40,389 nt of DNA from Spirochaetaceae bacterium (lineage in GTDB: Bacteria; Spirochaetota; Spirochaetia; Treponematales; Breznakiellaceae). The stretch spans positions 1-40,389 of the forward strand of contig JAISCO010000322.1 in NCBI GenBank assembly GCA_031265535.1, read 5' to 3'. Below, one piece after another: positions 6,374 to 33,103 of this stretch. A model generated the notes under the pieces. The model was not told the origin of the DNA, searched no databases, and saw only the letters and a program-made list of their open reading frames with translations. Within the stretch, counting starts at the first letter, position 1. Each line of letters starts with the position of its first letter. Position numbers and translations under genes: made by a program.

Positions 6374-6387
6374 GTTAATTCCTCCTT

Positions 6388-7488: not shown

Positions 7489-7505
7489 TTTTTTCTCCTA
7501 TATTT

Positions 7506-8603: not shown

Positions 8604-11600
8604 CTATATCTTTCCTGTAAATCCTTTTGCCCAGCGAAGGATAAATTCCTCGCCGGGAACGGGAGCGGTTTCAAACAAAAAGAATTTTGTGTTTTTTAAC
8701 TGCCTGAGGGATAAATCCGTCCGCACATCATAGCTGCTGTTGCAGGTTTTTCGCGGCGTTTCCAGTTCGCCGCCCTGTATAGCCAGCACTTGTACCGCTT
8801 TAGGGTCATTATGGGATATCAAATGCTGGTCGTCCGCGCAAGCGCATAACACGAACCGGGGCGCTTGCGAGAAAGGACGGTTTCCGGCGGCCTCTATCGA
8901 CAACTTTATATCGCCCAAAAGGCTTTTACTGAGCTTCCAGAATACGTCTACCCTTAATGGACGGTCAAAGCGGCATGGTTTCGGGTCGGATACTATCTCT
9001 TTGCCGCCAAAATTGTAAATTGTGAAAAGGGATACATAATATGACGCTTCCGCGCGGGCGGTTTCCCTGTACAGTATCTCGCCGTTTTCCCGGTACGCCG
9101 CCAGCCCAATCCGGTGAATATCCTGCGCCGTGCCAATATCCTGCGCGGTCGGCCAGTGGTTTTGGGAAGCGCTGGTCCTGACCGAATAATAGAAACCGGT
9201 AACATTCGGAGGGATGACGCCGATTTTAAGGTGTAGTTCTATTGTGTATGCGGCTTCCCGCAAACCCGCGATAGCATCCTCGTGTAAGCTGGATGACGCC
9301 TTGTCAATCAAACAGGGTGAGTATGTATTGACCTCCTGACTGTTCTTGCTCGGCAGCCAGTTGCCGCCCGAATAGGCCAGAACCGTGATAGTATGGAAGT
9401 TGTTCGCGGGCAATTCAATGTCGCAGCTTCCGGCATCGGATTTCAATTCACGGACTTGCTTTCCGCCAACCAGTATACGCAGGTCAATTCCGCGCCGGTT
9501 TATATCCCATGAAACATTGTAGGTGTTTTCCTTAAGTTTTTTTACGGCAATTGCAAACGATTCGATTTTGAGCATCGGGGTAATAACAATATCTACCCCA
9601 CGACTGTGGGGTAGATTGGCATAATTGGCGCAGAGTTTATATGCATACGCAAGGCCGTACTGAACATTCGTATCCTCAAAGCTGCCGTGCGCCTCGCTGC
9701 TTAGCAGGGTTTCCTTCCCGCCCTGAGTCCGGCGGATAGTAACGCCCGCGCTGTTTTTCGGCGCGTTCCATGTAAGCCGAACAGTCATGTTCACCTGCTC
9801 GGCGCGCGCGTCGGTAACATCAGCAAGAAGGACATCGGTTTTTCCCGCGGCGGAAGAGAATACCCCGTACCTGACGGCAAAAACAGCATAGCTGTACCAC
9901 TGACCCGGCAAAATAGTTTTGTCGCGGTATGTGGTATCTTTGGTATTGTCAAGCAGAATTTCTCCGTCCATTTTGCTGACCGGTATTTCTTTACCCTGTT
10001 TCCTGACAAGCCGGCAGCTTACCCCCTGCTCCGGCGATGGCGTCCAGCCGATATTCGCGGCGCCGGCTAAACTGTCCATGCCGACTGAAAGGTTTTTGCA
10101 GCTTTCCGGCGGCGTTGATTGCAGAAAACTGACGGCGGGTTCAAAATCAACGCAATCCCGCAAAATCGCAACGCACTCGTCCGCCTTACCGGAGGATGAG
10201 AGTTTTCCGACATTCGCAAACCTTGTACGGGCCTGTGAAAGAGCGGTATTAATCTGCGCTTCAAAGACGGATACATTGAGCCCGGGGAAGCTGCCGGTAA
10301 TGACGGCAAGCGTTTCGGATGCTTTTTGGAACATTTTATCGGCAAGCAGCTTTCGCAGGTCGTTTACCGGCTTTTCATACCTCTTTTCTTCCGCGGAAAT
10401 ACGCGCCGCCAGTTCATCGGTCCTGCTCTTTTCTCCCGGATCGGCAGCCTGCGCCTGGTACAAGGAACTGCGCGCCAATTCAAAATCGCTCTTGCGAAGG
10501 GCCTGTTCCGCGGCGGCAAAGTATTTTGCAAACATTGCGGCGCTCGCGAACACAAACCCGCACTCAGGGCATCTATCCAGGGAAACAAGCGCCATCTTTT
10601 GGCACTTCCCGCACCGCTTATAGAGCGGTTTGCCGCAATTCGAACATTTATTTATGTTTTGCGCTTCCGCCGCGTCTGTAAATTCAATCGGGGCCTGACA
10701 GTGCGGGCATTTGACATGAAACATGGGCGTTACAGGAATATAAGGGTCATCCAGCAATTTGAGTTCATTGTTGTAAACCGCGACGGCTATTGTATTATCA
10801 CCGAATATATCAAATATTTGTTTGACGTATTTTTCAGCATATCTGGGATTTAACAGGTGTGACTTGTCAAATCCCTTCAGTGAATCAATAAGTTCCGCTA
10901 AATCCGTAGATTTATATTTTAGTAAAATCCCGTATGCGCTGCGTTTTTTTTCAGAGTCGAAGACATTGAATCTGCCATAAGTAGCCAGAGAACCGCACAA
11001 GTGCCTCCATTCATTCGCTTTGGGGTCGCCAAAATCCGCCGCGTATTTTTCACACAGGCTTTTTAACTCGGTGGTGGATTTATTACGATATTCATACACA
11101 TTTTCCGGCTCATCAGCCATGTATGCGAGAAAAGCATATAAATCCGTTACTTGTGATGTATCAGCAACATTCTTTTTATAATTACGCAGGTTTTCAAGAT
11201 CCTTGATGTGGTTTTTCCAATTCGTTGGAAGCAATGATTCTATTATTTTATAATAATTGAACTCTAACATCTCAAGTCCAAGCGCGGAAAAAACCTCTTC
11301 TATATGCGACTCGGATAACTTTGTTATTTGCTTATAGGTTCTTACCGTACCCTTTGTTATCCTGCTAGTCCCGCCTGCTTTTAAGGCCGCCGCTGTTTTT
11401 CTGAATTTTTTAATCTCCCTATCGGTATGAGCATTGGCCAGCCTTTCCAATTCATCAAAAAGCGGTTCTTTATTGGCGTCAAGCACAGAAGCAAGGCATT
11501 TCTTCTGCTCAGAAAATAAGACCTCCTCTTTATCACCCCTCGGCCCATTATTGAAAGATCCATCTAATTCCTTTTTTGCCTTTTCGATAGCGTCGAGAAT

Positions 11601-11669
11601 CTTCTGCGCCGCCTTTTCCGGCGGGTCAAAGGGCAAGTGTGTCAAATCAAAGAAATCATAGTCAGTCAT
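8604..11669 (-). CDS. shared N-terminal module (~316 aa) + double Zn-ribbon + TPR-like hairpin + helical region + Fn3/Ig-like beta domains
   Basis: 1021 aa. N-terminus MTDYDFFDLTHLPFDPPEKAAQK. 'KCPHCQ...CSNCG...CGKCQ...CPECG' gives four CxxC pairs. Fn3-like stretches include 'VRLTWNAPKNSAGVTIRR...YAYKLCA' and 'YNVSWDINRRG...ITVLAYSG'. Confidence 0.85.
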   Translation of the reverse strand: MTDYDFFDLTHLPFDPPEKAAQKILDAIEKAKKELDGSFNNGPRGDKEEVLFSEQKKCLASVLDANKEPLFDELERLANAHTDREIKKFRKTAAALKAGGTSRITKGTVRTYKQITKLSESHIEEVFSALGLEMLEFNYYKIIESLLPTNWKNHIKDLENLRNYKKNVADTSQVTDLYAFLAYMADEPENVYEYRNKSTTELKSLCEKYAADFGDPKANEWRHLCGSLATYGRFNVFDSEKKRSAYGILLKYKSTDLAELIDSLKGFDKSHLLNPRYAEKYVKQIFDIFGDNTIAVAVYNNELKLLDDPYIPVTPMFHVKCPHCQAPIEFTDAAEAQNINKCSNCGKPLYKRCGKCQKMALVSLDRCPECGFVFASAAMFAKYFAAAEQALRKSDFELARSSLYQAQAADPGEKSRTDELAARISAEEKRYEKPVNDLRKLLADKMFQKASETLAVITGSFPGLNVSVFEAQINTALSQARTRFANVGKLSSSGKADECVAILRDCVDFEPAVSFLQSTPPESCKNLSVGMDSLAGAANIGWTPSPEQGVSCRLVRKQGKEIPVSKMDGEILLDNTKDTTYRDKTILPGQWYSYAVFAVRYGVFSSAAGKTDVLLADVTDARAEQVNMTVRLTWNAPKNSAGVTIRRTQGGKETLLSSEAHGSFEDTNVQYGLAYAYKLCANYANLPHSRGVDIVITPMLKIESFAIAVKKLKENTYNVSWDINRRGIDLRILVGGKQVRELKSDAGSCDIELPANNFHTITVLAYSGGNWLPSKNSQEVNTYSPCLIDKASSSLHEDAIAGLREAAYTIELHLKIGVIPPNVTGFYYSVRTSASQNHWPTAQDIGTAQDIHRIGLAAYRENGEILYRETARAEASYYVSLFTIYNFGGKEIVSDPKPCRFDRPLRVDVFWKLSKSLLGDIKLSIEAAGNRPFSQAPRFVLCACADDQHLISHNDPKAVQVLAIQGGELETPRKTCNSSYDVRTDLSLRQLKNTKFFLFETAPVPGEEFILRWAKGFTGKI

Positions 11670-11713
11670 GATTTATCATCCTTTTAATTGTCGCGGATTT
11701 CGGGGCTGCCATC

Positions 11714-12829
11714 TCACTCCACGCCCCATATCCTGACGGTGTTATCCAATGACCCGGAGGCAATCCTGCGCCCATCGGGACTCCACGACACGGAAGCTAC
11801 AAAGCTGGTATGCCCCGTGAGCGCAAACAGTTCGCTCCCGCTCTCCGCGTCCCAGATCTTTATGGTTCTATCAGATGACCTGGAAGCTATCCTGCGCCCA
11901 TCGGGGCTCCATGCCACGGAAGAGTTTCCCTTATTGAGGGTTAGCAGTTCACGCCCATTCTCTGCGTCCCATATTTTGAAGGGGTCATTCTTATTATAAT
12001 ATGAACCGGAAGCTATTCTGCGCCCATCGGGGCTCCACGCCACGTAATCTACATAGCTGTTATGCCCCGTGAGTGTGCGCAGTTCACGCCAATTCTCCGC
12101 GTCCCATATCCTGACGGTGTTATCTCCTGAGCCGGAAGCTATCCTGCGCCCATCGGGGCTCCACCCCACGGAATATACCTTGTCGGTATGCCCCTTGAGG
12201 GTTAGCAGTTCACGCCAATTCTCCGCGTCCCATATTTTGATGGTGTTGTCCTCTGACCCGGAAGCTATCCTGCGCCCATCGGGACTCCACGCCACGGAAT
12301 CTACCTCCTTGAGTGTGCGCAGTTCACGCCCGCTTTCCGCATCCCATATCTTGACGGTCTTATCACGTGACTTGGAAGCTATCCTGCGCCCATCGGGGCT
12401 CCATGTCATGTAATATACAAAGCTGTGATGCCCCTTGAGTGTGCGTAGTTTACGCCCGCTCTCCGCGTCCCATATCTTGATGGGTTCTTTATACCTTGAC
12501 CCGGCGGAGGCAATCCTGCGCCTATCGGGAGTCCACGCCACGGAATCTACCTCCTTGGGGGTGCGCAGTTCACGCCCGCTCTCCGCGTCCCATATTTTGA
12601 TAGTCATATATGACTCGGAAGCTATCCTGCGCCCATCGGGGCTCCACACCACGTGATATACAAATCTGTTATGCCCCGTGAGTGTGCGCAGTTCACGCCC
12701 GCTCTCTGCATCCCATATCCTGACGGTGTTATCTCCTGAGCCGGAAGCTATCCTGCGCCCATCGGGGCTCCATGACATGGAACATACCTTGTCGGTATGC
12801 CCCTTGAGTACGCACAGTTCACGCCACCC
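11714..12829 (-). repeat. intragenic tandem array of ~126-bp WD40-coding repeats (9 units)
   Basis: The string 'gcgcccatcggggctccacgccacgga...cagttcacgcc(c/a)...tccgcgtcccatat' recurs with ~126-bp period. The same units recur in 14237-14866. Confidence 0.9.
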
Positions 12830-14140
12830 CTCCTTCCGCTTCCTGCTGGTTTCATCCTCCTCCCGCTTCCGCCTCTCTTTTGCGGAAATACGCGCCGCCA
12901 GTTCATCGGTTTTGCTCTTTTTGCCCGGATCGGCAGCCTGCGCATCGGACAAATAAAGGCGTGCCAATTCAAAATGCCCTTCGAGAAATGCCCGTTCTGC
13001 GGTAGCGAAGTATTTTTCAAACGCTACGGCGCTCTCCTCCCGCTTGGCTTCATCCTCCTCCCGCTTCCGTCTGGCATCCTCCTCCCGCTTCTGTCTGGGT
13101 TCCTCCTCGAAGATCGGCTCGGGTATACGAAGCTCCGGTTCCGGCATTGTGTGGCTCGGCTCCTTTTTTGCCGGGATATAAAACTCGTCTTTAAACCCTG
13201 CTTCCTTGTTATAGATAGCGAGCGAGACCTCATAATCCCCAAAGACGGCCGCGATTTCTTTTATACATCCCTCGGCAAATTTGGGTTCCAACAAATGGTG
13301 CATGGAAAAGGATTTCATGGTAGAGAACAACTCCGTCAGAGACGGAGTTTTATATTTCAGGTATGCTTCATAGGCTTGGCGGTGATCTTCCGAGTCGAAT
13401 ACATAAAGCTTGCCGTACGTAGCCAGTGAAGAGCAGAGATGTCCAAATTTATCGGTTCGAGCAGAGTACTTTACGGCAAAACCATCAAACAGGCTTTTCA
13501 GTGCGGATCTTGATTTACTTCTATACACCGCCGCGTTTTCCGGTTCGCCGGCCATGTATGCGGCAAGGTCATACAAATTTTTCACCTGCTTAAGGGCAGC
13601 CTCATTCACGTTTGATTTTTGGTCTTTAAAATTCTGAAAAGCCTCGAGAGGTTTCGCATACGCTTTATCCGCGTTGGTTGGAAACCTGGGATATTTTTTA
13701 ATCAGATCATCGGTGGAGCTTACTGTAAATCCGGCGGCACGGAAAACATCTTCCACATTTTTCTTTGATAATCCCCTCTCTTTTTGATGACCACGAATAG
13801 CCCTATCGGTAATTACATGGGAACCTGACTGTTTGAGCCGCGAAACGAACGCCCTTAGTTTCTCGATTTCTTTTTTTACTTTATCTTTTGCCAGTTCATC
13901 ATAAGCGGGAGTGAGTTTATCATCATTACTAATGATAGAGTCTTTTGATCCCTTTTTTATGATTTTGTCCAAAAAAGACTGTTTTCCCGTGATTTTATCG
14001 TACTCCCATTGCGGCATATCATTGGTAGGATGACCAATCTCTTTTTTTGCCTTTTCGATAGCGCCGGTAACCTTCTGCGCCGCCTTTTCCGGCGGGTCAA
14101 AAGGCAGGCGTGTCAAATCAAAGAAATCATAGTCAGTCAT
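11714..14140 (-). CDS. shared N-terminal module + charged linker + TPR-like hairpin + 9 WD40 repeats
   Basis: 808 aa. N-terminus MTDYDFFDLTRLPFDPPEKAAQK. Nine units of the form GHxxxVxxVxWSPDGRRIASGSxDxT(V/I)(R/K)IWDAE(S/N)GRELRTL(K/T). Confidence 0.9.
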   Translation of the reverse strand: MTDYDFFDLTRLPFDPPEKAAQKVTGAIEKAKKEIGHPTNDMPQWEYDKITGKQSFLDKIIKKGSKDSIISNDDKLTPAYDELAKDKVKKEIEKLRAFVSRLKQSGSHVITDRAIRGHQKERGLSKKNVEDVFRAAGFTVSSTDDLIKKYPRFPTNADKAYAKPLEAFQNFKDQKSNVNEAALKQVKNLYDLAAYMAGEPENAAVYRSKSRSALKSLFDGFAVKYSARTDKFGHLCSSLATYGKLYVFDSEDHRQAYEAYLKYKTPSLTELFSTMKSFSMHHLLEPKFAEGCIKEIAAVFGDYEVSLAIYNKEAGFKDEFYIPAKKEPSHTMPEPELRIPEPIFEEEPRQKREEDARRKREEDEAKREESAVAFEKYFATAERAFLEGHFELARLYLSDAQAADPGKKSKTDELAARISAKERRKREEDETSRKRKEGWRELCVLKGHTDKVCSMSWSPDGRRIASGSGDNTVRIWDAESGRELRTLTGHNRFVYHVVWSPDGRRIASESYMTIKIWDAESGRELRTPKEVDSVAWTPDRRRIASAGSRYKEPIKIWDAESGRKLRTLKGHHSFVYYMTWSPDGRRIASKSRDKTVKIWDAESGRELRTLKEVDSVAWSPDGRRIASGSEDNTIKIWDAENWRELLTLKGHTDKVYSVGWSPDGRRIASGSGDNTVRIWDAENWRELRTLTGHNSYVDYVAWSPDGRRIASGSYYNKNDPFKIWDAENGRELLTLNKGNSSVAWSPDGRRIASRSSDRTIKIWDAESGSELFALTGHTSFVASVSWSPDGRRIASGSLDNTVRIWGVE

Positions 14141-14236
14141 GAAATGTCCTCCATATCAATTATCCCAGGTTTTGGGGCTGTATTGGGAGACGTCTGTTTG
14201 AGGACATTAAGCATGGTGGTGTTCATGGTTGCCATT

Positions 14237-14866
14237 TTACTCCGCGCCCCATATCCTGACGGTTTTATCATTTGACCCGGAAGCTATCCTGCGCCCATCG
14301 GGGCTCCACGCCACGGACAGTACATCGTAGGTATGCCCCTTGAGCGTGTGCAGTTCACGCCCGCTCTCCGCGTCCCATATTTTGATGGTTTTATCCGATG
14401 ACCCGGAAGCTATCCTGCACCCGTCGGGGCTCCACGCCACGGAGTATATGTAGTCGGAATCCTTGAGCGTGTGTAGTTCACGCCCACTCTCCACATCCCA
14501 TATCCTGACGGTCATATCATTTGACCCGGAAGCTATCCTGCGCCCATCGGGGCTCCACGCCACGGACAGTACATCGTAGGTATGCCCCTTGAGCGTGTGC
14601 AGTTCACGCCCGCTCTCCGCGTCCCATATCCTGACGGTTTCATCCCGTGACCCGGAAGCTATCCTGTGCCCGTCGGGACTCCACGCCACGGATTCTACAA
14701 TGTGATGCCCCGTGAGCGTGTGCAGTTCACGCCCGTTCTCCGCATCCCATATCCTGACGGTGTCATCCCCTGCCCCTGAGGCAATCTTGAGCCCATCGGG
14801 GCTCCACGCCACGGAATATACATAGAAGAAATGCCCCTTGAGCGCACGCAGTTCACGCCAAAGCTC
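14237..14866 (-). repeat. intragenic tandem array of ~126-bp WD40-coding repeats (5 units)
   Basis: Same repeat family as 11714-12829. Units 3 and 5 are almost identical at the DNA level. Confidence 0.9.
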
Positions 14867-15844
14867 TTCCTTTTTCGCCGGGATATAAAGCTCACCTTGT
14901 AATCCCGCTTCCTTGTTATAGATATTTACCGATACCATATAATAGCAGCCAAAGATGGCCGATATTTTATTTATAAACGCTTCGGCCAATCCGGGGTCTA
15001 ACAAATCCTGCTTGTTGGAGGAAAAGGACTTCATCTGAGCGAATAACTGTGTCAGCAACGGATTTTTATATTTCAGGTATGCTTCATAGGCTTGGCGGTG
15101 ATCTTCTGTGTCGAATATATATGTCTTGCCGTAAGTAGCCAGAGAAGAGCATAGATGCCCTGCCGGATCATTGTCATGCTGCCCGGATAACTTACCGGCG
15201 AATCCGTCAAATAGGGCTTTTAGTTCGGGAGTTGTTTTCTTTTTATACTCCGCGGTTTTTTCCGGCTCACCGGCCATACACGCGGCAAAGGCATATAAAT
15301 CTTCCGCCGGCGTAAAGTCAGTCCATTTTTTATTCTCAGGTTTTCGCAAAGCCTCAAGTTCCTTATACGCTATATCCGCGTTTTTTGGAAACTTTGGGTA
15401 GTGCTTGTTGAACAGTTCATCTCTGGGGATTTCTGTAAATCCGGCATTACGAAAAACCTCTTTCACATGGCCTTCGGACAGCAATGTCCTTTTGCTATGG
15501 CGGCGAATCGTACCATCAGTAAACTTAGGGGAAGGCAGCAGCAAAACGACCTCCCTTAGTTTCTCGATTTCTTTTTTTACTTTATCTTCCGCCAGCTTGC
15601 TATAAGCGGGAGTGAGTTTATCATCATTACTAATGATAGAGTCTTTTGATCCCTTTTTTATAATGGTGTCCAAAAAAGACTGTTTTCCCGTGATTTCATC
15701 GCGTTCCAATTGCTGCGTGGCAGAGGAAAGAGCAGCAACAAGTTCTTTTTTTGACTTTTCGACAGCGCCGGTAACCTTCTGCGCCGCCTTTTCCGGCGGG
15801 TCAAAGGGCAAGTGTGTCAAATCAAAGAAATCATAGTCAGTCAT
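14237..15844 (-). CDS. shared N-terminal module + 5 WD40 repeats
   Basis: 535 aa. The N-terminal ~322 aa are almost identical to those of the next gene upstream (15874-17973). They are followed by five near-identical WD40 units. Confidence 0.9.
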   Translation of the reverse strand: MTDYDFFDLTHLPFDPPEKAAQKVTGAVEKSKKELVAALSSATQQLERDEITGKQSFLDTIIKKGSKDSIISNDDKLTPAYSKLAEDKVKKEIEKLREVVLLLPSPKFTDGTIRRHSKRTLLSEGHVKEVFRNAGFTEIPRDELFNKHYPKFPKNADIAYKELEALRKPENKKWTDFTPAEDLYAFAACMAGEPEKTAEYKKKTTPELKALFDGFAGKLSGQHDNDPAGHLCSSLATYGKTYIFDTEDHRQAYEAYLKYKNPLLTQLFAQMKSFSSNKQDLLDPGLAEAFINKISAIFGCYYMVSVNIYNKEAGLQGELYIPAKKEELWRELRALKGHFFYVYSVAWSPDGLKIASGAGDDTVRIWDAENGRELHTLTGHHIVESVAWSPDGHRIASGSRDETVRIWDAESGRELHTLKGHTYDVLSVAWSPDGRRIASGSNDMTVRIWDVESGRELHTLKDSDYIYSVAWSPDGCRIASGSSDKTIKIWDAESGRELHTLKGHTYDVLSVAWSPDGRRIASGSNDKTVRIWGAE

Positions 15845-15873
15845 GAAATGTCTCCCTATTAATTATCCCAAGT

Positions 15874-17973
15874 TTATGTGTCGTCTGCGGTTAGATACAT
15901 CCATCTACTAACAAAGTAAACAAAGATACCAATGCTCCAACCAATCAAGGCATCAATGATAGCACCGCCGATACCACCGAAGAAGAAACCCCTGGATCCG
16001 CGAAGAGAGCCGATAAAGCTGCTTATAACCATACAAGCGCAGAACCCTAATTCGCCACCAAAGAGTTCCATTGCGAAATTATTAATGATGTAGTAGATGA
16101 GAACAGAAATAGCGCCGATGATGGTACCGATAATTGCGCAGACGACAACACCATTGCTGCCTTGAAAGATGGCACTACCGATGGCATCGACAATAATACT
16201 GGCGATGGCAATGACAAGTATTATTTTCTTTTTTCGTTCTCTTTTGAATTCCTCACTCAGCTTCCACCAGACTTCCTCCTCCTGTTCCCGCCTCTCTTCT
16301 TCTTCCCGCTTCCGTCTGGGTTCCTCCTCTTGTTTCCGTCTCTCTTCCGCAGAAATACGCGCCGCCAGTTCATCGGTTTTGCTCTTTTCACCCGGATCGG
16401 CGTCCAGTGCTTCGAACAAATAATTGCGTGCCAATTCAAAATACTCTTCGAGAAGTGCCTGTTCTGCGGCAGCAAAGTATTTTGCAAACGCTGCGGCGCT
16501 CTCTTCCTGCTTCCGTCTAGCGTCCTCTTCCTGCTTACGTATAGCGTCCTCTTCCTGCTTACGTCTAGCGTCCTCTTCCTGTTTCCGCCTCTCTTCTGCG
16601 GAAATACGCGCCGCCAGTTCATCGATCTTGATCTTTTTGCCCGGATCGGCAGCCTGCGCATCGGACAAAGAACGGCGCGCCAATTCAAAATCGCTCTTGC
16701 TAAGGGCCTGTTCCGCGGCAGCGAAGTATTTTTCAAACGTTGCGGCGCTCTCCTCTCGCTTTCTGTCATCCTCCCGCTTCCGTCTCTCTTCCGCAGAAAT
16801 ACGCGCTGCCAGTTCATCAGTCTTGATCTTTTTGCCCGGATCGGCAGCCTGCGCCTGGGACAAATAAATGCGTGCCAATTCAAAATCGCTCTTGCGAAGG
16901 GCCTGTTCCGCGGCAGCGAAGTATTTTTCAAACGCGGCGGTACTCTCCTCCTGCTTCCGTCTCGTCTCTTCTTCCCGCTTCCGCCTCTCCTCCTCCTCAA
17001 ATCTCGCCGGGATATAAAGCTCACCTTGTAATCCCGCTTCCTTGTTATAGATATTTACCGATACCATATAATCGCAGCCAAAGATGGCCGAGATTTTATT
17101 TATATACACTTCGGCCAATTCGCGGTCTAACAAATCCTGCTTGCTGGAGGAATAGGATTTCATCTGAGCGAATAACTCTGTCAGCGACGGATTTTTATAT
17201 TTCAGGTGTGCTTCATAGCCCCGGCGGTGATCTTCTGTGTCGAATACATAGGTCTTGCCGTAAGTAGCCAGAGAAGAGCAGAGATGCCCTGCCGGATCCT
17301 TATCATGCGGCCCGGATAACTTACCGGCGAATCCGTCAAACAGGCTTTTTAGTGCGGATGTTGATTTACCGCGATACTCCGCGGCTTTTTCCGGCTCACC
17401 GGCCATGCACGCGGCAAAGGCATATAAATCTTCCGCCGCCGTAAAGTCAGTCCATTTTTTATTTTCAGGATTCCGTAACGCCTCAAGTTCCTTATACGCT
17501 ATATCCGCGTTTTTTGGAAACTTTGGGTAGTGCTTGTTGAACAGTTCATCTCTGGGGATTTCTGTAAATCCGGCATTGCGAAAAACCTCTTTTACATGGC
17601 CTTCGGACAGCATTGTCCTTTTGCTATGGCGGCGAATCGTACCATCAGTAAACTTATGGGAAGGCAGCAGCAAAACGACCGCCCTTAGTTTCTCGATTTC
17701 TTTTTTTACTTTATCTTCCGCCAGCTTGCTATAAGCGGGAGTGAGTTTATCATCATTACCAATGATAGAGTCTTTTGATCCCTTTTTTATGATGGTATCC
17801 AAAAAAGACTGTTTTCCCGTGATTTCATCATGCTCCAATTGCTGCGTGGCAGAGGAAAGAGCAGCAACAAGTTCTTTTTTTGACTTTTCGATAGCGCCGG
17901 TAACCTTCTGCGCCGCCTGTTCCGGCGGGTCAAAAGGCAAGTGTGTCAAATCAAAGAAATCGTAGTCAGTCAT
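15874..17973 (-). CDS. shared N-terminal module + 3 TPR-like hairpin cassettes in E/R/K-rich linkers + C-terminal glycine-zipper multi-TM domain
   Basis: 699 aa. Three copies of 'FEKYFAAAEQAL.KSDFELAR..L..AQAADPGKK.K.DELAARISAEERRK.EE'. The last ~119 aa are hydrophobic and Gly-rich (IIGTIIGAISVLIYY...FFFGGIGGAIIDALIGWSIGIFVYF). Confidence 0.9.
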   Translation of the reverse strand: MTDYDFFDLTHLPFDPPEQAAQKVTGAIEKSKKELVAALSSATQQLEHDEITGKQSFLDTIIKKGSKDSIIGNDDKLTPAYSKLAEDKVKKEIEKLRAVVLLLPSHKFTDGTIRRHSKRTMLSEGHVKEVFRNAGFTEIPRDELFNKHYPKFPKNADIAYKELEALRNPENKKWTDFTAAEDLYAFAACMAGEPEKAAEYRGKSTSALKSLFDGFAGKLSGPHDKDPAGHLCSSLATYGKTYVFDTEDHRRGYEAHLKYKNPSLTELFAQMKSYSSSKQDLLDRELAEVYINKISAIFGCDYMVSVNIYNKEAGLQGELYIPARFEEEERRKREEETRRKQEESTAAFEKYFAAAEQALRKSDFELARIYLSQAQAADPGKKIKTDELAARISAEERRKREDDRKREESAATFEKYFAAAEQALSKSDFELARRSLSDAQAADPGKKIKIDELAARISAEERRKQEEDARRKQEEDAIRKQEEDARRKQEESAAAFAKYFAAAEQALLEEYFELARNYLFEALDADPGEKSKTDELAARISAEERRKQEEEPRRKREEEERREQEEEVWWKLSEEFKRERKKKIILVIAIASIIVDAIGSAIFQGSNGVVVCAIIGTIIGAISVLIYYIINNFAMELFGGELGFCACMVISSFIGSLRGSRGFFFGGIGGAIIDALIGWSIGIFVYFVSRWMYLTADDT
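16349..16945 (-). repeat. three ~150-bp copies of a TPR-like-hairpin coding cassette
   Basis: Copies lie at about 16349-16500, 16598-16749 and 16792-16945. Single copies of the same cassette lie at about 10390-10550 and 12880-13033 in two other genes. Confidence 0.85.
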
Positions 17974-17988
17974 GATTTATCATCCTTT

Positions 17989-20172
17989 TCAATCATCCCA
18001 GGTTTCCGTGTCCGCGGCGCTTCGATCAAGGCCGCTTTGCGCGGCAGCGCCTAAACTTTGCGCAATCGTTCCAAAGGCGCTCGTCAGTTCCGACTGCGAA
18101 ACAAGCAGCGCATTGGCGTCTTTGGATGATATATCCTGTAAAAACTTCTTGTCGGCTTTTCCAAAGCCGATGGCCGCCGTTTCGATCTCCGCGTGGTTGC
18201 ACTGTTTTGCCGCCGCGATTGCCGCTTCCTGGCAGCGCCAAACGCCGTCTGCCAGGATAACGGCAAAACGCCGCCCGTCCTCGTCCGCAAGCATGTTCCT
18301 GATGTCGGTAAACGGGTGTGCGCTGTTGCAATACCCGGTCTGCCCGCTGGTAATGGACTGAATGGCCCGTATGCAGGCATCCTCATTGTCGGTGAGTCCC
18401 GTTATCTCGGCTGTCCTGTCGGATACGGCAAGTATGCCGACCCGGGTGAATGAAAAATCCATATTGCGAATAAAATCGCACATCGCGTTCTGGGCGGCTC
18501 TTAGCGGGTCTCCATCCATACTGCCCGAAACATCAACAGCCATGACGACATTCAACGGTTCGGGTTTAAGGAACTCCGCCGGGTCAATGGGCAGCGCGTA
18601 TTTCGACATATCCTCCGGCACCGGTTCTTTGCGAATGGGCAAGTCGCCGCAACCGCTTTCCTGCCGCGCCTGCACCTGGATAATCCCGTTGTTGTCGTAA
18701 CTGTACTGGACCTTGATTATAGTTTTCCCTTTTTGTCCTTTTACGTGCTGAATGCCGGAGACAAGGTATTTGTACGGGATCTGGTTGTCGAGCGGGTTTT
18801 CCTTGTCGCCCTGTAAAACATAAACCTCCATCTCGTTAGCGCCGCGAGCGGAAGTGTAAAACGCAAATGCTTTGGCAACGCGAACCGGGCGCGGGTGGTT
18901 GGCGGGGATTATAATATCGTTAATATACCCGGCGCCGTCCGTACTGACGGCTATAATGCCCATCGCGTGAGCGGTCGTCTCCCTTAGTTTCAGAAGGCCG
19001 ACGCTAGAGAGCTTTTGCGAAGGTTTAACGCTCACCTGAGAACTTAAGCCGCTGTGGGCCGTAACTTTTTTCCCGTCGCTCATCACCTGTATAGCGAGCG
19101 CGGCATAAGGTTCGTTTTCTTTGGTGGACTGTATCGCGGCGCCCAAAGCGACAGCTTCATCGGGATTTACATGGGTTATGGGCTTTTTACCGAACATATC
19201 CAGAATGTACCGTGAAACCTGCGGCATACGGGTAGAACCCCCGACCAGCAGCACATCCGTTACGTCACGAATGTTTAATCCGGCGTCGGAGAGGACGGTG
19301 TTGCAAAGCGATACCGTCCTGTCAAGCAGGTCCCTTGTGTTTTCTTCAAACTCGCCGCGATTGACCATAACGCTCGCGGAACCAAAATCAGGGATGGAAG
19401 CGCTGACCTTTACGGACTGCATGGCGCTTAATTGCTTTTTTACGCCTTCAGCCATGCCGCGGAACATGGCTTTTATACCGGCGCCGGAGTGTGTATCAAT
19501 ACCTGTTTCCGCCGCAAATTTATCCATCAGCAGTTGTTCTATGCGGTCGTCCCAATCACGGCCGCCAAGTAAATGATTGCCCCGCGTTGTGATAGTCGAT
19601 AAATCGCCGTTAGGCCCCATCCGGGTTAAGGTTACGTCAAAGGTTCCGCCGCCTAGGTCGTAAACAAGAATATTCGCGTTCTCGCGCCAGTTGTTCAAGC
19701 CGTATGCCATCGCCGCCGCGTTAGGCTCGTCAATAATTTTCCTCACCTTTATACCCGCGGCATTTGCGGCCCGGACGGTCGCTTCGCGCTCGGCCGAGTA
19801 GAAGTAAGCGGGAACAGTAATTACCGCGTCCTTTATGGTATCGCCCAGTTCGGCTTCCGCGTCTTCCTTTAAGCGCCTAAGCAGCAGAGCGGATAAGTCC
19901 TCGGCGGTATAGGATTTGTCATCTATAAAGCAGTACGCCCCGGACTTTCCCATACCGCGTTTGAAGGTGGCCGCGCAGCCGGATTGTCCCGCGTTAAAGG
20001 CGCTCTCCGCCTCGGAACCGAAAATGGCCCGTCCGTTTACAAACTGGATAACGGACGGGGTTATGTTTTTGCCTTCGCGGTTGGGGATGATTTTCGGCAG
20101 CTTTGTTTGAGGGTCAATGTACGCCACCGCCGAAAAGGTCGTCCCCAGATCAATACCTACTGAAACAGCCAA
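17989..20172 (-). CDS. Hsp70 (NBD + SBD-beta) fused to a C-terminal vWA domain
   Basis: 727 aa. TTG start 8 nt after GGAGG. Hsp70 motifs GIDLGTTFS, IDEPNAAAMAYG, YDLGGGTFDVTL, LLVGGSTRMPQV. C-terminal MIDAS-type 'VVMAVDVSGSMDG' (DVSGS at 18520-18534). Confidence 0.85.
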   Translation of the reverse strand: MAVSVGIDLGTTFSAVAYIDPQTKLPKIIPNREGKNITPSVIQFVNGRAIFGSEAESAFNAGQSGCAATFKRGMGKSGAYCFIDDKSYTAEDLSALLLRRLKEDAEAELGDTIKDAVITVPAYFYSAEREATVRAANAAGIKVRKIIDEPNAAAMAYGLNNWRENANILVYDLGGGTFDVTLTRMGPNGDLSTITTRGNHLLGGRDWDDRIEQLLMDKFAAETGIDTHSGAGIKAMFRGMAEGVKKQLSAMQSVKVSASIPDFGSASVMVNRGEFEENTRDLLDRTVSLCNTVLSDAGLNIRDVTDVLLVGGSTRMPQVSRYILDMFGKKPITHVNPDEAVALGAAIQSTKENEPYAALAIQVMSDGKKVTAHSGLSSQVSVKPSQKLSSVGLLKLRETTAHAMGIIAVSTDGAGYINDIIIPANHPRPVRVAKAFAFYTSARGANEMEVYVLQGDKENPLDNQIPYKYLVSGIQHVKGQKGKTIIKVQYSYDNNGIIQVQARQESGCGDLPIRKEPVPEDMSKYALPIDPAEFLKPEPLNVVMAVDVSGSMDGDPLRAAQNAMCDFIRNMDFSFTRVGILAVSDRTAEITGLTDNEDACIRAIQSITSGQTGYCNSAHPFTDIRNMLADEDGRRFAVILADGVWRCQEAAIAAAKQCNHAEIETAAIGFGKADKKFLQDISSKDANALLVSQSELTSAFGTIAQSLGAAAQSGLDRSAADTETWDD

Positions 20173-20189
20173 AACTTGTACCTCCTCTT

Positions 20190-21869
20190 CTATTTGTGAT
20201 CAAAACCGCTCTCAATTTGTCCGCGGGGGTTTATCGAAGCAAGAAATTTTTTTGCTTCGTCCATTTCTTCCTCTGTTTTGGGATTTCCTCTTTCTATGAC
20301 GGCGCTGACCGATTCGCCGGTTAAAGTATTGGTTGCCGAGACTTCAAGCCCGATTTCGCTGGCACGGAAGACTACCTCAATTGGCGAACTATTTGGGGTG
20401 TTGGGGGGCAGCTTTAAACTGAGCTCGCCGATCTTATTGACCATAAGAGCCGGGTCGGTGGGCTGATCATTGCCGTTCATATCTTCGGAGGGAGTAACGT
20501 GCGTGTTCACCCGGTCCCTCGAAGCATTTTGGAACACGACAAGGTTAACCACGCGCTGATTATCGCAGCGCGTGTAATAGGTAGAGGTCGCCTCTGCCGG
20601 TATCTCATCATTGACAAAGAGCAGATTGTCAATCACATACAAGTCATTTTTATCCAGAATACCCGGCCCCAGGGAGCGGTTGAGTTTGTCTTTGACAGTG
20701 ATATGCCGCGGTACGTTTTGCAGCAGCTTTTCTTCTTCTTTTTTGGTAATGGGAGTCGGTTCTTCTTTAATACGCTCTTGGATCTGCTCGTTATATTTTA
20801 TAGCGGCAGTTAAAGCCGCGCCTTTTGCGACAGCCAAGTGGGGCTGTTCAACACGCACCTTGCCGGGGAACAATCCCTCAACAGCGGCCTTAACCATAGG
20901 CATCAATGTAGACCCCCCAACGAGCAGTACAAGATCAACATCGTCCGCCTGAAGTTTTGCCTTCCCCAGCAATTGACGCACAAAGTCCATAGTCCGCTCG
21001 ACCAGGTCCCTGGTCCGCTCTTCGAACTTCTCGCGGCTTACCTCCAGGCGAGTGCCTTCACCGCCATAGCTGATTATAAAACTCTTGTTCGACATCGTAG
21101 AGAGATTTTTTTTAACAGTTTCCACCTGTGAACGGATCTTCTGGCGAAGTTCGCCTTCCATATCGTCCTGGGAAACTCCGGTTTGAGCGGTGTAAAGTTC
21201 GCATATATAGTCATACAGACTGGCGTCCCAGTTAATGCCGCCCAGGCGGTCGTTGCCGCCGGTTTCAATGACGTCAATAGTCGCCTTGTCGTTGTCGTCA
21301 ACACTAAAATCAAACAGTGTAATATCAAAGGTACCGCCGCCCAGGTCATAAACCATGATTTTACGGTTCTCACTGAACTCGTGGCAGCAATAGTTAAGCG
21401 CGGCGGCGGTCGGCTCATTGACAATCTTCAGGACTTCCAAGCCCGCAATGTCGCCCGCCCTTTTTGTCTCGGTGCGTTCATTATCACCAAAATACGCGGG
21501 GCATGTGATAACGACGTTTTTCACCTGATGGCCCTGCGCTTCGGCATATACTTTCATACGCTTCAGAATGAGAGCAGAGATTTCTGCGGGGTCATACTTT
21601 TTCCCGTTAAATTCACGAATCTGAGCGTCTTTCTTGCCGATTTCTCTTTTGACAAACTGAACGACTCTGTCAGGTTCAAGTTCCGCCTGACTCTTAGCCG
21701 CTTCTCCGATCACCGGATCGCCTTCACTTGGGAAGTAAACGGCGGACGCAAGCAAATCGCCGCCGTCATCATAGTTTTGAATAACCTCCGGCATTCCGTT
21801 TTCATTCAGAGTCGTGATGACCGAGTAAGTAGTACCCAGGTCAATACCATAAACTTTTTCCTTTTCCAT
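20190..21869 (-). CDS. Hsp70-family ATPase with SBD-beta but little or no helical lid
   Basis: 559 aa. Motifs GIDLGTTYS, VNEPTAAALNY, YDLGGGTFDITL, LLVGGSTLMPMV. SBD-beta-like '...IEVVFRASEIGLEVSATN'. SD AAGGAG. Confidence 0.85.
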   Translation of the reverse strand: MEKEKVYGIDLGTTYSVITTLNENGMPEVIQNYDDGGDLLASAVYFPSEGDPVIGEAAKSQAELEPDRVVQFVKREIGKKDAQIREFNGKKYDPAEISALILKRMKVYAEAQGHQVKNVVITCPAYFGDNERTETKRAGDIAGLEVLKIVNEPTAAALNYCCHEFSENRKIMVYDLGGGTFDITLFDFSVDDNDKATIDVIETGGNDRLGGINWDASLYDYICELYTAQTGVSQDDMEGELRQKIRSQVETVKKNLSTMSNKSFIISYGGEGTRLEVSREKFEERTRDLVERTMDFVRQLLGKAKLQADDVDLVLLVGGSTLMPMVKAAVEGLFPGKVRVEQPHLAVAKGAALTAAIKYNEQIQERIKEEPTPITKKEEEKLLQNVPRHITVKDKLNRSLGPGILDKNDLYVIDNLLFVNDEIPAEATSTYYTRCDNQRVVNLVVFQNASRDRVNTHVTPSEDMNGNDQPTDPALMVNKIGELSLKLPPNTPNSSPIEVVFRASEIGLEVSATNTLTGESVSAVIERGNPKTEEEMDEAKKFLASINPRGQIESGFDHK

Positions 21870-21887
21870 AATAATAATTCTCCTTAC

Positions 21888-24437
21888 TTATTTTTTTACC
21901 GGATTACCGGCGTTTGACTCATCAATTGGCGCTGTACAGCCCGGCAGACTCGCCGGGATATAAGGCTCATCTTTTAACCCCGCTTCCTTGTTATAGATAG
22001 CGAGCGATACTTCATAGTCCTCAAAGACGGTCGAGATTTCTTTTATACACGCTTCGGCAAATTTTGGCTCCAAGAAATACTGACTGGGAACAGACCTTAT
22101 GGTAGAAAAAAACTGCGTCAGGGACGGACTTGTATATTTCAGGTATGCTTCATAGTCCCGGCGGTGATCTTCCGAGTCGAATACATAGATCTTGCCGTGC
22201 ACAGCAAGAGAAGAGCAGAGCCACCCAAAGTTATCGAATTGAATACAGTATGCCTTGGCGAAACCATCAAACAGGCTTTTCAGTTCGGGTGTTGATTTAC
22301 CTCTATACTCCGCCGCTTTCTCCGGCTCGCCGGCCATGTATGCGGCAAAGTCATACAAATCTTTTACCTGCCTAAGGGCAGCCTCATTCGTGTTTGGCCT
22401 TGGGTTTGGAGATTTTCGCAAAGCCTCAAGTTCCGCATACATTTTATACACGTTGGTTGGAAACCGAGGATATTTTTTAAACAGATCAGCGGTGGAAATT
22501 ATTGTAAATCCGGCGGCGCGGAAAAGATCCTCCAAATGTTCCCTGGATAGCATCGTCTTTTTTTGATGACCGCGAATCGCCCCCTCTGTAATTACATGGA
22601 AACCCGATTGTTTGAGCAGCGAAGCGACCGCCCTTAATTTTTCAATTTCTTTTTTTACTTTATCTTTTGCCAGATCATCATAGGCAGGAGTGAGCTTGCC
22701 TTCATTATTAAAGATGCTTTTGGATATGGAGTCCAAAAAAGACGTTTTCCCCGCGGTTTCATCGCGCTCAAACTGCTGTACGGATAAGAAAATTGTCGTG
22801 TCAAGTTCTTTTTTTGCCTTGTTGATAGCGTCGATAAGCTTTTGCGCCGCCTTTTCGGGCGGGTCAAAAGGCAAGTGTGTCAAATCAAAGAAGTCGTAGT
22901 CAAGGCGATTTTGAACGGGCTCATTTTTGGTGTTTTCGCTTGTTATGACGGTGTTGACCTTTTCGCCGGTTTGAACATTGGCTGCCGAGACTTCCAGCCC
23001 GGTTTCGCCGGCACAGAAAAGCACCCGGATTGGCGAAGCCTTATGGGTGCCGGGTGGCAGCTTCAAGCTGAGCACTCCGATTTTCTTGACCATCAGAGCC
23101 GGATCAGTGGGCTGCGTATTACCATTTATGTCTTCGGAAGGAGTAACATGCTTGTCCCTGTCCTTTGAAGTATTTTCAAACAAGACAAGTTTAATTTCGC
23201 TCTGATTATCAATGCGTGTGTAACAGGTAAAAGCCGCCTTAGCCGGCAGTTCATCACCTACAAAGAGTAGATTGTCAATAACATACCGGCCATCACCATC
23301 TATGATACCCGGCCCCATGGAACGGTTGAGTTTGTCTTTGACCTTACCTGCTTTCTTGTTTTCTTTATATCCTACAAAGGCAGCCAAAGCCGCGCCTTTT
23401 GCGACAGCCAGGTCGGGCTGCTCAATACGAACCTTGCCGGGGAACATACCCTCAACAGCGGCCTTGACCATAGGCATCCTCGTAGAACCCCCAACGAGCA
23501 GTACAAGATCGATATCGTCCGCCTGAAGTTTTGCCGTCCCCAGAAGCTGACGCACAAAGTCCATAGTCCGCTCAACCAGGTCCCTGGTCAGCTCTTCAAA
23601 CTTCTCGCGTCTTGGCTCCAGGCGAGTACCTTCACCAGCATAGCTGATTATGAAACTCTTGCTCGACATATGGGAGAGATTTTTTTTAACATTCTCCACC
23701 TGTGAACGGATCTTCTGGCGAAGTTCGCCGTCCATCTCGCTCTGGCGAACCCCGGTTTGAGCGGTGTAAAGTTCGCATATATAGTCATACAGGCGCTCGT
23801 CCCAGTCAACGCCGCCCAACCGGGCGCTGCCGCCGGTTTCAATGACGTCAATATTTGTTTTGCCGCCGGCATCAACACTAAAATCAAACAGTGTAATATC
23901 AAAGGTACAGCCGCCCAGGTCATAAACCATGATTTTGCGGTTCTCAGTGAACTCGCTGCAGCAATAGTTAAGCGCGGCGGCAGTCGGCTCATTGACAATG
24001 TTTAGGACATTCATGCCCGCAATAATGCCCGCCTGTTCTGTCGCGGCGCGTTCCCCTCTGCCAAAATACGCGGGGCAGGTGATAACGACATTTTTCACCT
24101 GATGTCCCTGAGTTTCGGCGTACTCTTTCATTCGCTTCAGAATGAGGGCAGAGATTTCTATGGGGCCATACTTGACTCCGTTAAATTCACGAATCTGCGC
24201 GTCATCCTTGCCGATTTCTCTTTTGACAAACTGAAAGACCCTGTCGGGGTCAAGTTCCGCGTGACTCTTCGCCGCTTCACCGACCACCGGATCGCCTTCA
24301 CTTGGGAAGTAAACGGCGGACGCAAGCAAATCGCTGCTGTCATCATAGTTTTGAATTACCTCCGGCATTCCGTTTTCATTCAGAGTCGCGATGACCGAGT
24401 AGGTAGTACCCAGGTCAATACCATAAACTTTTACCAT
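21888..24437 (-). CDS. Hsp70-family ATPase fused C-terminally to the shared ~335-aa module
   Basis: 849 aa. Residues 1-~505 are paralogous to 20190-21869. From residue 513 (nt 22901 downward) the sequence 'DYDFFDLTHLPFDPPEKAAQK...' repeats the module found at the N-termini of four downstream genes. The phosphate-2 motif reads DLGGCTFD (Cys codon at 23907-23909). Confidence 0.85.
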   Translation of the reverse strand: MVKVYGIDLGTTYSVIATLNENGMPEVIQNYDDSSDLLASAVYFPSEGDPVVGEAAKSHAELDPDRVFQFVKREIGKDDAQIREFNGVKYGPIEISALILKRMKEYAETQGHQVKNVVITCPAYFGRGERAATEQAGIIAGMNVLNIVNEPTAAALNYCCSEFTENRKIMVYDLGGCTFDITLFDFSVDAGGKTNIDVIETGGSARLGGVDWDERLYDYICELYTAQTGVRQSEMDGELRQKIRSQVENVKKNLSHMSSKSFIISYAGEGTRLEPRREKFEELTRDLVERTMDFVRQLLGTAKLQADDIDLVLLVGGSTRMPMVKAAVEGMFPGKVRIEQPDLAVAKGAALAAFVGYKENKKAGKVKDKLNRSMGPGIIDGDGRYVIDNLLFVGDELPAKAAFTCYTRIDNQSEIKLVLFENTSKDRDKHVTPSEDINGNTQPTDPALMVKKIGVLSLKLPPGTHKASPIRVLFCAGETGLEVSAANVQTGEKVNTVITSENTKNEPVQNRLDYDFFDLTHLPFDPPEKAAQKLIDAINKAKKELDTTIFLSVQQFERDETAGKTSFLDSISKSIFNNEGKLTPAYDDLAKDKVKKEIEKLRAVASLLKQSGFHVITEGAIRGHQKKTMLSREHLEDLFRAAGFTIISTADLFKKYPRFPTNVYKMYAELEALRKSPNPRPNTNEAALRQVKDLYDFAAYMAGEPEKAAEYRGKSTPELKSLFDGFAKAYCIQFDNFGWLCSSLAVHGKIYVFDSEDHRRDYEAYLKYTSPSLTQFFSTIRSVPSQYFLEPKFAEACIKEISTVFEDYEVSLAIYNKEAGLKDEPYIPASLPGCTAPIDESNAGNPVKK

Positions 24438-25235: not shown

Positions 25236-25264
25236 AACAAATGCCTCCATAAAAATATTTCCCA

Positions 25265-27964: not shown

Positions 27965-28047
27965 GAAAACACCACTCCACCGGTGCCTGTCAACCCCGGA
28001 CCTGATTCTGTACTGCGAAGATTTTCTTTAAATCCCACCGCGCTCCC

Positions 28048-28224
28048 CTACTTGTTCGTGTAGTTTTTGCCGCTCACCCATGCTTCATAGTTGCCGCAGG
28101 TTTTGCAATTTTGATCCGACTTGCAGTTGTAGTCCCTGTGGCCTGATGACTGCTTTTGTTCCGACAGGCAGCATCTGTCGCTATGCGCGTCATAATGCTG
28201 ACACCAGCCGTATTGGTTTTGCAT
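28048..28224 (-). CDS. Cys-rich 58-aa protein (below the ORF-track cutoff), first gene of the long operon
   Basis: My translation is MQNQYGWCQHYDAHSDRCCLSEQKQSSGHRDYNCKSDQNCKTCGNYEAWVSGKNYTNK, ending at TAG. SD GGAGA 7 nt upstream, embedded in a class-1 leader cassette. Six Cys residues. Confidence 0.5.
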   Translation of the reverse strand: MQNQYGWCQHYDAHSDRCCLSEQKQSSGHRDYNCKSDQNCKTCGNYEAWVSGKNYTNK

Positions 28225-28231
28225 AAATTAT

Positions 28232-28260
28232 CTCCTTCCCGCTGTTACGCCGCGGAACAC
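28232..28260 (-). promoter_or_regulatory. conserved 5' leader cassette, class 1 (copy 2 of 4), at the head of the long operon
   Basis: Minus-strand reading is GTGTTCCGCGGCGTAACAGCGGGAAGGAG, then 8 nt and ATG. It is preceded by GGTTATTCATTAC, which resembles the TATACAT box upstream of the class-2 cassettes. Confidence 0.55.
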
Positions 28261-28354
28261 GTAATGAATAACCGTGCCTCCATAAATAAACCGGTGACGT
28301 ATAGATTTGGCGACCTATAATAATTTGGCATCTTACAAATAGTGAATGCCTGTA

Positions 28355-28783: not shown

Positions 28784-28893
28784 AAAATCCTCCAAAAATA
28801 TATTCCAAAGCGGCGACACGGGTGCCGCCGTATCAGACCATTTCAGTTTTTTTGCGTTCGATCAAACTACGCAAATGCGTTAAACGAGCCGGG

Positions 28894-31930: not shown

Positions 31931-31933
31931 ATC

Positions 31934-33093: not shown

Positions 33094-33103
33094 TTTTATA
33101 GGG

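Follow-up and report, generated by a model that had tools for sequence, protein, structure and literature searches.

The conflict systems most similar to the locus described here are those of the DO-GTPase families, in particular GAP1-N2-type systems that have an HSP70/GrpE theme. Both were put forward by computational prediction (Kaur, Burroughs, Iyer & Aravind, eLife 2020; PMC7159879). As described in the accessible portions of that paper, such systems have one or two DO-GTPases of the TRAFAC clade, one bearing N-terminal zinc ribbons and the other transmembrane helices. A GAP1 protein with N2, M and C domains is encoded downstream of the GTPase, and HSP70 and GrpE are accompanied or not by a second HSP70. 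The theme also includes a rapidly evolving protein with fibronectin type III (FnIII) repeats, regarded as a putative sensor, whose N-terminal fusions are variable and can be DnaJ or TPR repeats; decoy-type effectors are proposed for these systems as well. The available part of the supplementary text has no occurrence of DnaJ, GrpE or HSP70, and the searchable literature holds no experimental test of DO-GTPase/Hsp70 systems and no other paper mentioning them. The subject of this report is a domain of about 320 amino acids (aa), here called the module, which occurs five times in such a locus. The locus lies on a stretch of 40,389 nucleotides (nt) from a Spirochaetaceae bacterium (contig JAISCO010000322.1), referred to below as the window.

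Judged from its sequence, the locus is a GAP1-N2-type DO-GTPase conflict system of the HSP70/GrpE theme (PMC7159879). Tests for the features of the theme were positive for zinc-ribbon and transmembrane (TM) DO-GTPases (Pfam PF19993/PF19975), for the FnIII protein family, and for HSP70 with a weak GrpE; the three HSP70 genes match Pfam with E-values of 1e-88 to 1e-102. Also in common are a large protein in the GAP1 position downstream, the variable N-terminal fusions of the FnIII-repeat protein and an extra HSP70 paralogue. Unlike the published theme, the FnIII protein here is headed by the module, which has no HPD motif and is not recognised by Pfam DnaJ. A further difference is that the 842-aa protein in the GAP1 position (3845-6373) matches nothing in Pfam, GAP1 models included, or in NCBIfam.

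The system was therefore already known by computation. In the accessible portions of PMC7159879 there is no description of the module as a unit, of its spread to WD40 and TM proteins, of its fusions to Hsp70 in several orders, of its apparently novel fold or of gene conversion between its copies. Those portions are equally silent on a pair of genes, a TrwB-like ATPase and a 461-aa protein, that accompanies the system.

The original prediction, made from the window alone, took the module for a homotypic adaptor of the death-fold or effector-associated kind that recruits alternative outputs to an Hsp70 and GTPase core. The reading favoured here, with considerable doubt, is that the module ties the protein bearing it to one chaperone of the system, the "SBD-class" Hsp70 (SBD, substrate-binding domain), either heterotypically, in the manner of a J domain, or in a more general way.

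The module and its carriers

By its structural model, the module is helical nearly throughout. Four of its copies in the window form the heads of proteins and the fifth follows the SBD-like domain of an Hsp70 (Table 1). As predicted, the five regions can be aligned along their whole length, at 41–90% identity, and every landmark motif claimed for the module is found in the alignment. The Hsp70-borne copy begins at residue 513, as had been stated; its end lies near residue 832 by a local hidden Markov model (HMM), not at 849. The same C-terminal tail is found in P0005, a protein of another sample.

Compared with the copy in open reading frame (ORF) 15874-17973, identity is 90% for the 14237 copy, 66% for the 11714 copy, 61% for the Hsp70-borne copy and 42% for the 8604 copy. 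Codon-level comparison gives 93.7% nt identity between the 15874 and 14237 copies and 79.5% between the 11714 and Hsp70-borne copies, and about 54% between the 8604 copy and all others. The sub-lineages proposed earlier (a nearly identical pair, one head nearest to the Hsp70-borne copy, and a most diverged head in 8604-11669) are borne out by these figures. The ratio dN/dS among the copies is 0.27–0.48, so that all of them are under purifying selection.

The additional copies could be remnants of tandem duplication, on their way to decay and without a function of their own. Tandem duplicates are indeed spread across the locus: the two zinc-ribbon GTPases (6388-8594) are 83% identical in nt sequence, and the two SBD-class Hsp70s (20190-24437, minus strand) are 88% identical in the nucleotide-binding domain (NBD), a figure that falls to 77% for the SBD-like part. 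All ORFs with a module are intact, however, at 535–1021 aa, each copy has its own Shine-Dalgarno junction, and dN/dS stays below 0.5. Relatives with WD40, TM and Hsp70 tails also occur in other samples (P0028, P0003/P0006 and P0005). Mere decay is very improbable in the face of these observations.

The original prediction had suggested a search of metagenomes for partner architectures with a profile of the module. When 1.84 billion representatives were searched exhaustively with a profile, 172 clusters with the module came to light, compared with only six relatives from an earlier word-based search. The clusters were classified with pieces of the window proteins and with Pfam. In the dominant architecture, the module is followed by a double zinc ribbon, a hairpin, a helical middle and Fn3-like repeats; these proteins of about 1000–1045 aa are orthologues of 8604-11669. 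Minor architectures are the module alone (about 320 aa), module-WD40, module-DZR-MORN, and a form in which a lipoyl-like domain and TM segments come after the module. The module is, as predicted, a discrete portable domain whose tail may be FnIII, WD40, TM, MORN, lipoyl-like or missing. From its sequence relationships, it is the conserved and unannotated N-terminal domain of the system's zinc-ribbon/FnIII protein of about 1025 aa. It has no match in Pfam, NCBIfam or PADLOC, and a profile search against PDB sequences gave a best E-value of 0.16. A phmmer search of PDB with residues 347-849 of the module-bearing Hsp70 also gave no match. Public records label module carriers "hypothetical protein"; named sources include Gardnerella vaginalis, Solibaculum mannosilyticum and [Clostridium] leptum.

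Fusions to parts of Hsp70 occur in four arrangements. These are NBD-SBD-module (the window), NBD-module (P0013 in locus L033), module-NBD (P0031 in L007/L008, P0042 and P0039) and module-SBD-like (P0014 in L032). The NBDs fused to the module belong to the SBD-class paralogue, to which they are 42–59% identical, compared with 28–38% to the class that carries a vWA domain. Likewise, the SBD-like part of P0014 matches the SBD-like domain of the SBD-class paralogue.

These fusions bear on another explanation, in which the module acts as a regulator or sensor through the DO-GTPase, the GAP1-like protein, the vWA protein or a ligand. The link to Hsp70 would then be operonic only, and the additional copies would act as decoys or as dominant-negative regulators. 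Two loci, L003 and L034, have stand-alone copies of about 320 aa directly upstream of the canonical gene, as such a role might predict, and residues ~105-325 of the module are without recognisable relatives. The decoy-type effectors proposed for these systems would also fit. Set against this, none of the 172 clusters has the module fused to GTPase, GAP1 or vWA, and the selection on the copies together with their intact and diverse tails argues for working proteins rather than mere decoys. A partner other than Hsp70 is improbable.

The neighbourhood of the module was followed in 34 related loci from genomes and metagenomes, annotated with HMMs built from the window; about 30 of these are informative. 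They come from Acidobacteriota, Actinomycetota, Balneolaceae, Spirochaetaceae/Treponema and Firmicutes and have a common gene order: [TrwB-like, ~460 aa] - GrpE-like - Hsp70 - Hsp70-vWA - module-FnIII - zinc-ribbon GTPase - ~850-aa protein in the GAP1 position - TM GTPase. Every examined locus with the module is of this system, which ties the module specifically to Hsp70/GTPase neighbourhoods.

In about 24 of the roughly 30 loci there is a single module, on the FnIII protein, and the Hsp70s are module-free. The five copies of the window are therefore a lineage-specific expansion. Smaller expansions are found in other loci. A canonical gene is accompanied by a module-NBD fusion in L007/L008, by a module-SBD-like fusion in L032 and by an NBD-module fusion in L033. 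In L034 and L003, a stand-alone copy of about 320 aa precedes a second module gene. In L034 this second gene is the canonical FnIII gene; in L003 the contig ends within it. Two module genes in tandem are found in L002. Extra copies are located without exception either immediately upstream of the canonical gene or on a duplicate of Hsp70. Duplication of the head in tandem is thus recurrent, and the window is the extreme case seen.

Copy number also bears on whether the module binds itself. As a homotypic adaptor or oligomerisation domain, it would multimerise the FnIII protein in single-copy loci and co-assemble the WD40, TM and Hsp70 carriers in expanded ones. Several observations fit this possibility as well as they fit coupling to Hsp70 by direct contact. 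At least two carriers are present in each multi-copy locus (the window, L002, L003, L007/8, L032, L033 and L034), and Hsp70-derived and FnIII carriers occur together in the window, L007/8, L032 and L033. Moreover, both the NBD and the SBD-like part are fused to a module, each in different loci. On the other hand, L002, L003 and L034 have two copies each, none of them on a core component. Where one copy coexists with module-free Hsp70s, pairing could not link the FnIII protein to the core, and so homotypic pairing of core and output is not the ancestral mode. The adaptor role first proposed is therefore well supported as far as coupling is concerned, given a module confined to Hsp70/GTPase loci and its four fusion arrangements, and falls as far as ancestral self-pairing is concerned.

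The proposed likeness to death folds is not supported. The module is about 320 aa long, and no death fold is found among its Foldseek matches in PDB. Effector-associated domains (EADs) are small, a size that would set the module apart from them. Further differences from EADs and death-fold adaptors are its single copy in most loci and the lack of a death-like structural match. The resemblance to those adaptors (Kaur et al. 2020, 2021) lies in the presence of one helical domain on at least two proteins, in the window and six other loci, with a core component and variable partners in four, a distribution that marks such adaptors operationally.

Structure and resemblance to J domains

An AlphaFold2 model built from 23 diverse sequences has a pLDDT of 91.3 and a pTM of 0.73 and is nearly all helical; with seven sequences the pLDDT was 80. 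A Foldseek search with the model gave nothing significant (best E 3.3 in PDB and 0.74 in BFVD). As modelled, the fold as a whole is without detectable relatives in these two databases and is apparently novel.

The N-terminus is the part with a possible relative. Its consensus, M..yDfFdLtgL.FDPPE..kKv..AI.k.kk.L, is similar over about 27 residues to the way in which a J domain begins, DyYeiLGv....eIkkAYrkla. An hhalign comparison of module residues 1-110 (93 sequences) with eleven manually entered J-domain sequences gave a probability of 54%, P=1.3e-4 and a score of 25.8. Two hundred column-shuffled controls had a mean score of 8.3 (standard deviation 1.6, maximum 12.7), and the reversed control scored 10.8. 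The model places helices at residues 6-10, 21-35 and 44-61. DnaJ proteins are among the sub-threshold Foldseek matches, at ranks 2, 37 and 44 in BFVD and, for the Sis1 J domain, rank 27 in PDB (E 1.6–9.6).

Functional J domains are defined by the HPD motif. This motif is absent from the module, and residues 36-43, where its loop would be, are unconserved in the 93-sequence alignment. This is one of several points that weigh against a J-like mode of coupling. The hhalign match is confident over no more than about 25 columns (helix I and the beginning of helix II), and every Foldseek match is non-significant (E>0.7). Pfam DnaJ (PF00226) has no match on the module at E<=5, nor on 31 full-length members at E<=1. 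Among relatives of the FnIII protein no DnaJ head was found, by a word-based search that may have missed distant DnaJ-headed forms. The equivalence in position between module and DnaJ head consequently depends on one sentence of Kaur et al.

Canonical J domains are also missing from the surroundings. None was found in the 1839 open frames of 33 loci and the window, where a local J HMM gave a best E-value of 1.5 compared with 2e-34 for the positive control. Family members with divergent N-termini have no canonical DnaJ heads either.

The Hsp70s of the system were compared with a manually entered DnaK sequence. Residues aligned with the catalytic residues D8, K70, E171, D194, T199 and D201 are kept in all of them. 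The position of R167, the contact partner of the HPD aspartate, is N in 20 of 22 SBD-class proteins and K in 28 of 29 vWA-class proteins. Further changes in the vWA class are N170D and T173N, and the SBD class has lost the VLLLD linker. The linker of Hsp70 takes part in J-domain action. Loss of the R167 equivalent and of the linker, alongside a head without HPD, is consistent with a non-canonical partnership.

The module can thus be compared with two kinds of J-related protein. Its logic resembles that of J-domain proteins (PF00226), where a small recruiting head for Hsp70 is placed N-terminally on many client- or site-specific tails. Helix I and early helix II have a similar profile, helix II is basic, and Hsp70 and GrpE co-occur. 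Unlike the small J domain, the module has no HPD and no Pfam match and is four times larger. The proposed partner Hsp70s differ as well, since they have no R167 equivalent and, in the SBD class, no hydrophobic linker; any activation would therefore be non-canonical.

The second comparison is with Pam16/Tim16, a J-like domain without HPD that serves as regulator or tether in an Hsp70 machine. The likeness would lie in a J-like helical hairpin without HPD in such a machine. Pam16 pairs with the J domain of Pam18, a precedent for pairing between J-like domains that would suit a module that binds itself. Unlike Pam16/Tim16, which pairs with a true J domain, the module is found in loci that encode none.

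Taken with the J-like N-terminus, a heterotypic contact with Hsp70 like that of J proteins is at least as likely as a homotypic one. What favours the heterotypic form of the coupling is that there are loci with a single copy, that the head is J-like and that fusion has occurred repeatedly to one paralogue of Hsp70. The last two points, the size of the module and the lack of a death-fold match speak against self-pairing, which remains a lesser possibility.

The module was also considered as a displaced lid (SBD-alpha) of Hsp70, since the Pfam HSP70 alignment runs into it. This was rejected: hhalign against the lid gave a probability of 1.9%, and the module alone has no HSP70 match.

Duplication and exchange within the locus

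The first ~35 codons of the module have been homogenised across the five copies, a feature overlooked in the original prediction. In this segment dS is 0.11–0.51, whereas over the whole module it is at least 1.8 between the 8604 copy and the others. Constraints on translation start do not explain the similarity, since the homogenised segment is found inside the Hsp70 gene too. The simplest reading of the sequences is gene conversion. The codons concerned encode the J-like part of the module. Homogenisation of this part would also keep a self-interface compatible, as expected if modules bind one another.

Junctions between genes have been copied as well, as the original prediction had noted. 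The 16-mer GATTTATCATCCTTTT has exactly two occurrences, at 11670 and 17974, with 0.05 expected, and a second shared junction was found upstream of both 14140 and 15844. ORF 14237 is a mosaic, with a head like that of 15874 (copy D) and a tail like that of 11714 (copy B), and it thereby supports the head swapping that had been proposed. Together with gene conversion, such mosaics show that shuffling is ongoing.

The tails of the four module-headed proteins are of the types predicted (nine WD40 repeats, five WD40 repeats, a multi-TM glycine-zipper-like region, and a double zinc ribbon with Fn3-like repeats). The statement that they diverge completely proved wrong. A TPR-like hairpin of 54 aa (F.KYFAAAEQAL...DPG.K.K.DELAARI) comes after the module in three of the four proteins, with one copy in 8604, one in 11714 and three in 15874 (82–90% nt identity). 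The hairpin also occurs in the canonical FnIII protein at other loci. In addition, 11714 and 14237 have related WD40 tails, with 75–81% nt identity. The roughly four hydrophobic TM segments of the 15874 tail are rich in small-xxx-small motifs, of the glycine-zipper type, and make this tail a candidate membrane effector. Two further ORFs, 16162-17031 (plus strand, 289 aa) and 16257-17024 (minus strand, 255 aa), overlie the hairpin and charged-repeat region of 15874-17973 and are most likely artefacts of repetitive, low-complexity coding sequence.

The FnIII protein of the window has no fn3 match of its own at E<=1 and aligns along its full length with its orthologues. Of 31 orthologues, 12 match fn3 (best E 2.6e-7), and a match is also found in L005; TPR families match 3–4 of the 31 full-length members. 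Closest to the FnIII protein of the window are P0226 (83%, across 64% of the query) and, from a Spirochaetaceae metagenome-assembled genome, P0227 (77%). Further relatives belong to Treponema, Holophagales, Cryptobacterium, Balneolaceae, Gardnerella vaginalis and Solibaculum. PF25833.1 appears in the precomputed annotation of about ten relatives (P0176, P0179, P0191 and others). As it is missing from window proteins with the module but without the Fn tail, PF25833 lies in the tail and not in the module.

The large ORFs within 2.2–28 kb of the window are all on the minus strand. Table 1 lists the features of the locus.

Table 1. Features of the locus, with positions in the window
Feature	Position	Strand	Remarks
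Module copy A	10722..11669	(-)	aa 1-316 of ORF 8604-11669; most diverged; canonical position, as head of zinc-ribbon/FnIII protein
Module copy B	13172..14140	(-)	aa 1-323 of ORF 11714-14140; nearest to Hsp70-borne copy (79.5% nt)
Module copy C	14879..15844	(-)	aa 1-322 of ORF 14237-15844; 93.7% nt to copy D
Module copy D	17008..17973	(-)	aa 1-322 of ORF 15874-17973
Module copy H	21942..22901	(-)	aa 513 to ~832 of Hsp70 ORF 21888-24437 (local HMM); after NBD and divergent SBD-like domain
Homogenised N-terminal segments	11565-11669, 14036-14140, 15740-15844, 17869-17973, 22803-22901	(-)	near-identical even at synonymous sites
Tail of ORF 8604-11669	8604..10721	(-)	double zinc ribbon (Pfam DZR), hairpin 10377-10538, helical middle, Fn3-like repeats
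Tail of ORF 11714-14140	11714..13171	(-)	hairpin 12866-13027 and 9 WD40 repeats
Tail of ORF 14237-15844	14237..14878	(-)	5 WD40 repeats, related to 11714 tail
Tail of ORF 15874-17973	15874..17007	(-)	hairpins 16777-16938, 16582-16743, 16333-16494 in charged coiled region, then ~4 TM segments
Hsp70 NBD and SBD-like part, module-bearing	22902..24437	(-)	duplicate of 20190-21869 (NBD 88% nt)
Canonical SBD-class Hsp70	20190..21869	(-)	without lid, without module
Hsp70 NBD and C-terminal vWA	17989..20172	(-)	Pfam; kept in all related loci
GrpE-like nucleotide exchange factor	24456..25307	(-)	weak: Pfam GrpE E=4.7e-5, 23.6 bits vs 25.8 cutoff; NCBIfam E 8e-4; conserved position
Zinc-ribbon DO-GTPase, tandem duplicate 1	7506..8594	(-)	Pfam DO-GTPase2 26.9 bits vs 27 cutoff; 83% nt to 6388-7488
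Zinc-ribbon DO-GTPase, tandem duplicate 2	6388..7488	(-)	Pfam DO-GTPase2 30.1 bits
842-aa protein in GAP1 position	3845..6373	(-)	kept downstream of GTPase in ~18 related loci reaching that far
DO-GTPase with N-terminal TM segments and zinc ribbon	2228..3814	(-)	Pfam DO-GTPase2 33.0 bits, DO-GTPase1 32.2 bits
TrwB/VirD4-like ATPase	26654-27964	(-)	Pfam
461-aa protein without assignment	25265-26650	(-)	paired with TrwB/VirD4-like ATPase

The TrwB/VirD4-like coupling ATPase and the protein of about 460 aa lie directly upstream of the GrpE-like gene, in the window as well as in 12 or more related loci (L003, L004, L007, L008, L013, L016, L021, L022, L024, L026, L029 and L034). The two appear to be a conserved accessory of the system. 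Just upstream of the system (28000-34000), GC content drops to 37–40%, and several TPR-repeat proteins and ORFs without matches are encoded. The window also encodes a TM2-domain protein (38888-39457) and an SH3-domain protein (1036-1746).

Other loci have their own variations. In the metagenome contig L001 (46-3453 and 5046-5294), four genes flanking the module gene begin with a zinc-ribbon head, MAxCSKCGAELKPxxxFCTQCG, and continue with tails of the TPR, TPR, WD40 or TM kind, a second set of one head with many tails. L034 encodes a second vWA-class-like Hsp70 of 817 aa (5287-7749) with a different, unassigned C-terminal domain, and L011 and L025 have an extra Hsp70 of 823–832 aa.

Proposed coupling to the chaperone

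If the module does couple its carrier to the SBD-class Hsp70, the following scheme can be proposed. The first ~60–70 residues would be a degenerate J domain, in which a short helix I and a basic helix II are followed by a loop without HPD and by helix III, and the remaining ~250 residues would form a helical body. In the usual system, a single copy may hand one putative sensor to Hsp70. The GrpE-like factor would drive the cycle of the chaperone, and the GTPase/GAP1 pair would act as its gate.

In the window, tandem duplication and recombination have placed the head on two WD40 propellers and on a multi-TM protein of the glycine-zipper type, and a fusion has joined it to a duplicate of Hsp70. 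The outcome would be one chaperone hub with several putative sensors as alternatives and with a putative membrane effector.

A more specific proposal, held only tentatively, is that the module represents a new class of Hsp70 co-chaperone. Such a co-chaperone would consist of a J-derived head minus HPD and a helical body of about 250 aa, and would have co-evolved with dedicated Hsp70 paralogues that lack the R167 equivalent and, in the SBD class, the hydrophobic linker. It would act as a portable plug, handing interchangeable sensors and a membrane effector to the ATP-driven chaperone for assembly or activation.

Nothing is overturned by these results. An abstract prediction, that Hsp70 has a role in a conflict system, becomes a specific and testable hypothesis, in which one unannotated domain is singled out as the likely Hsp70 connector of DO-GTPase/Hsp70 systems. 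Residues for mutation can be named: F14-D15-P16, which form an FDP motif, and Y310-N311...Y321-x-P323. The FnIII protein, the two WD40 propellers and the TM protein provide natural alternative cargoes for comparison, and Gardnerella vaginalis and Solibaculum mannosilyticum are cultured carriers. If true, a J-like mode of binding without HPD would widen the known routes by which Hsp70 is recruited.

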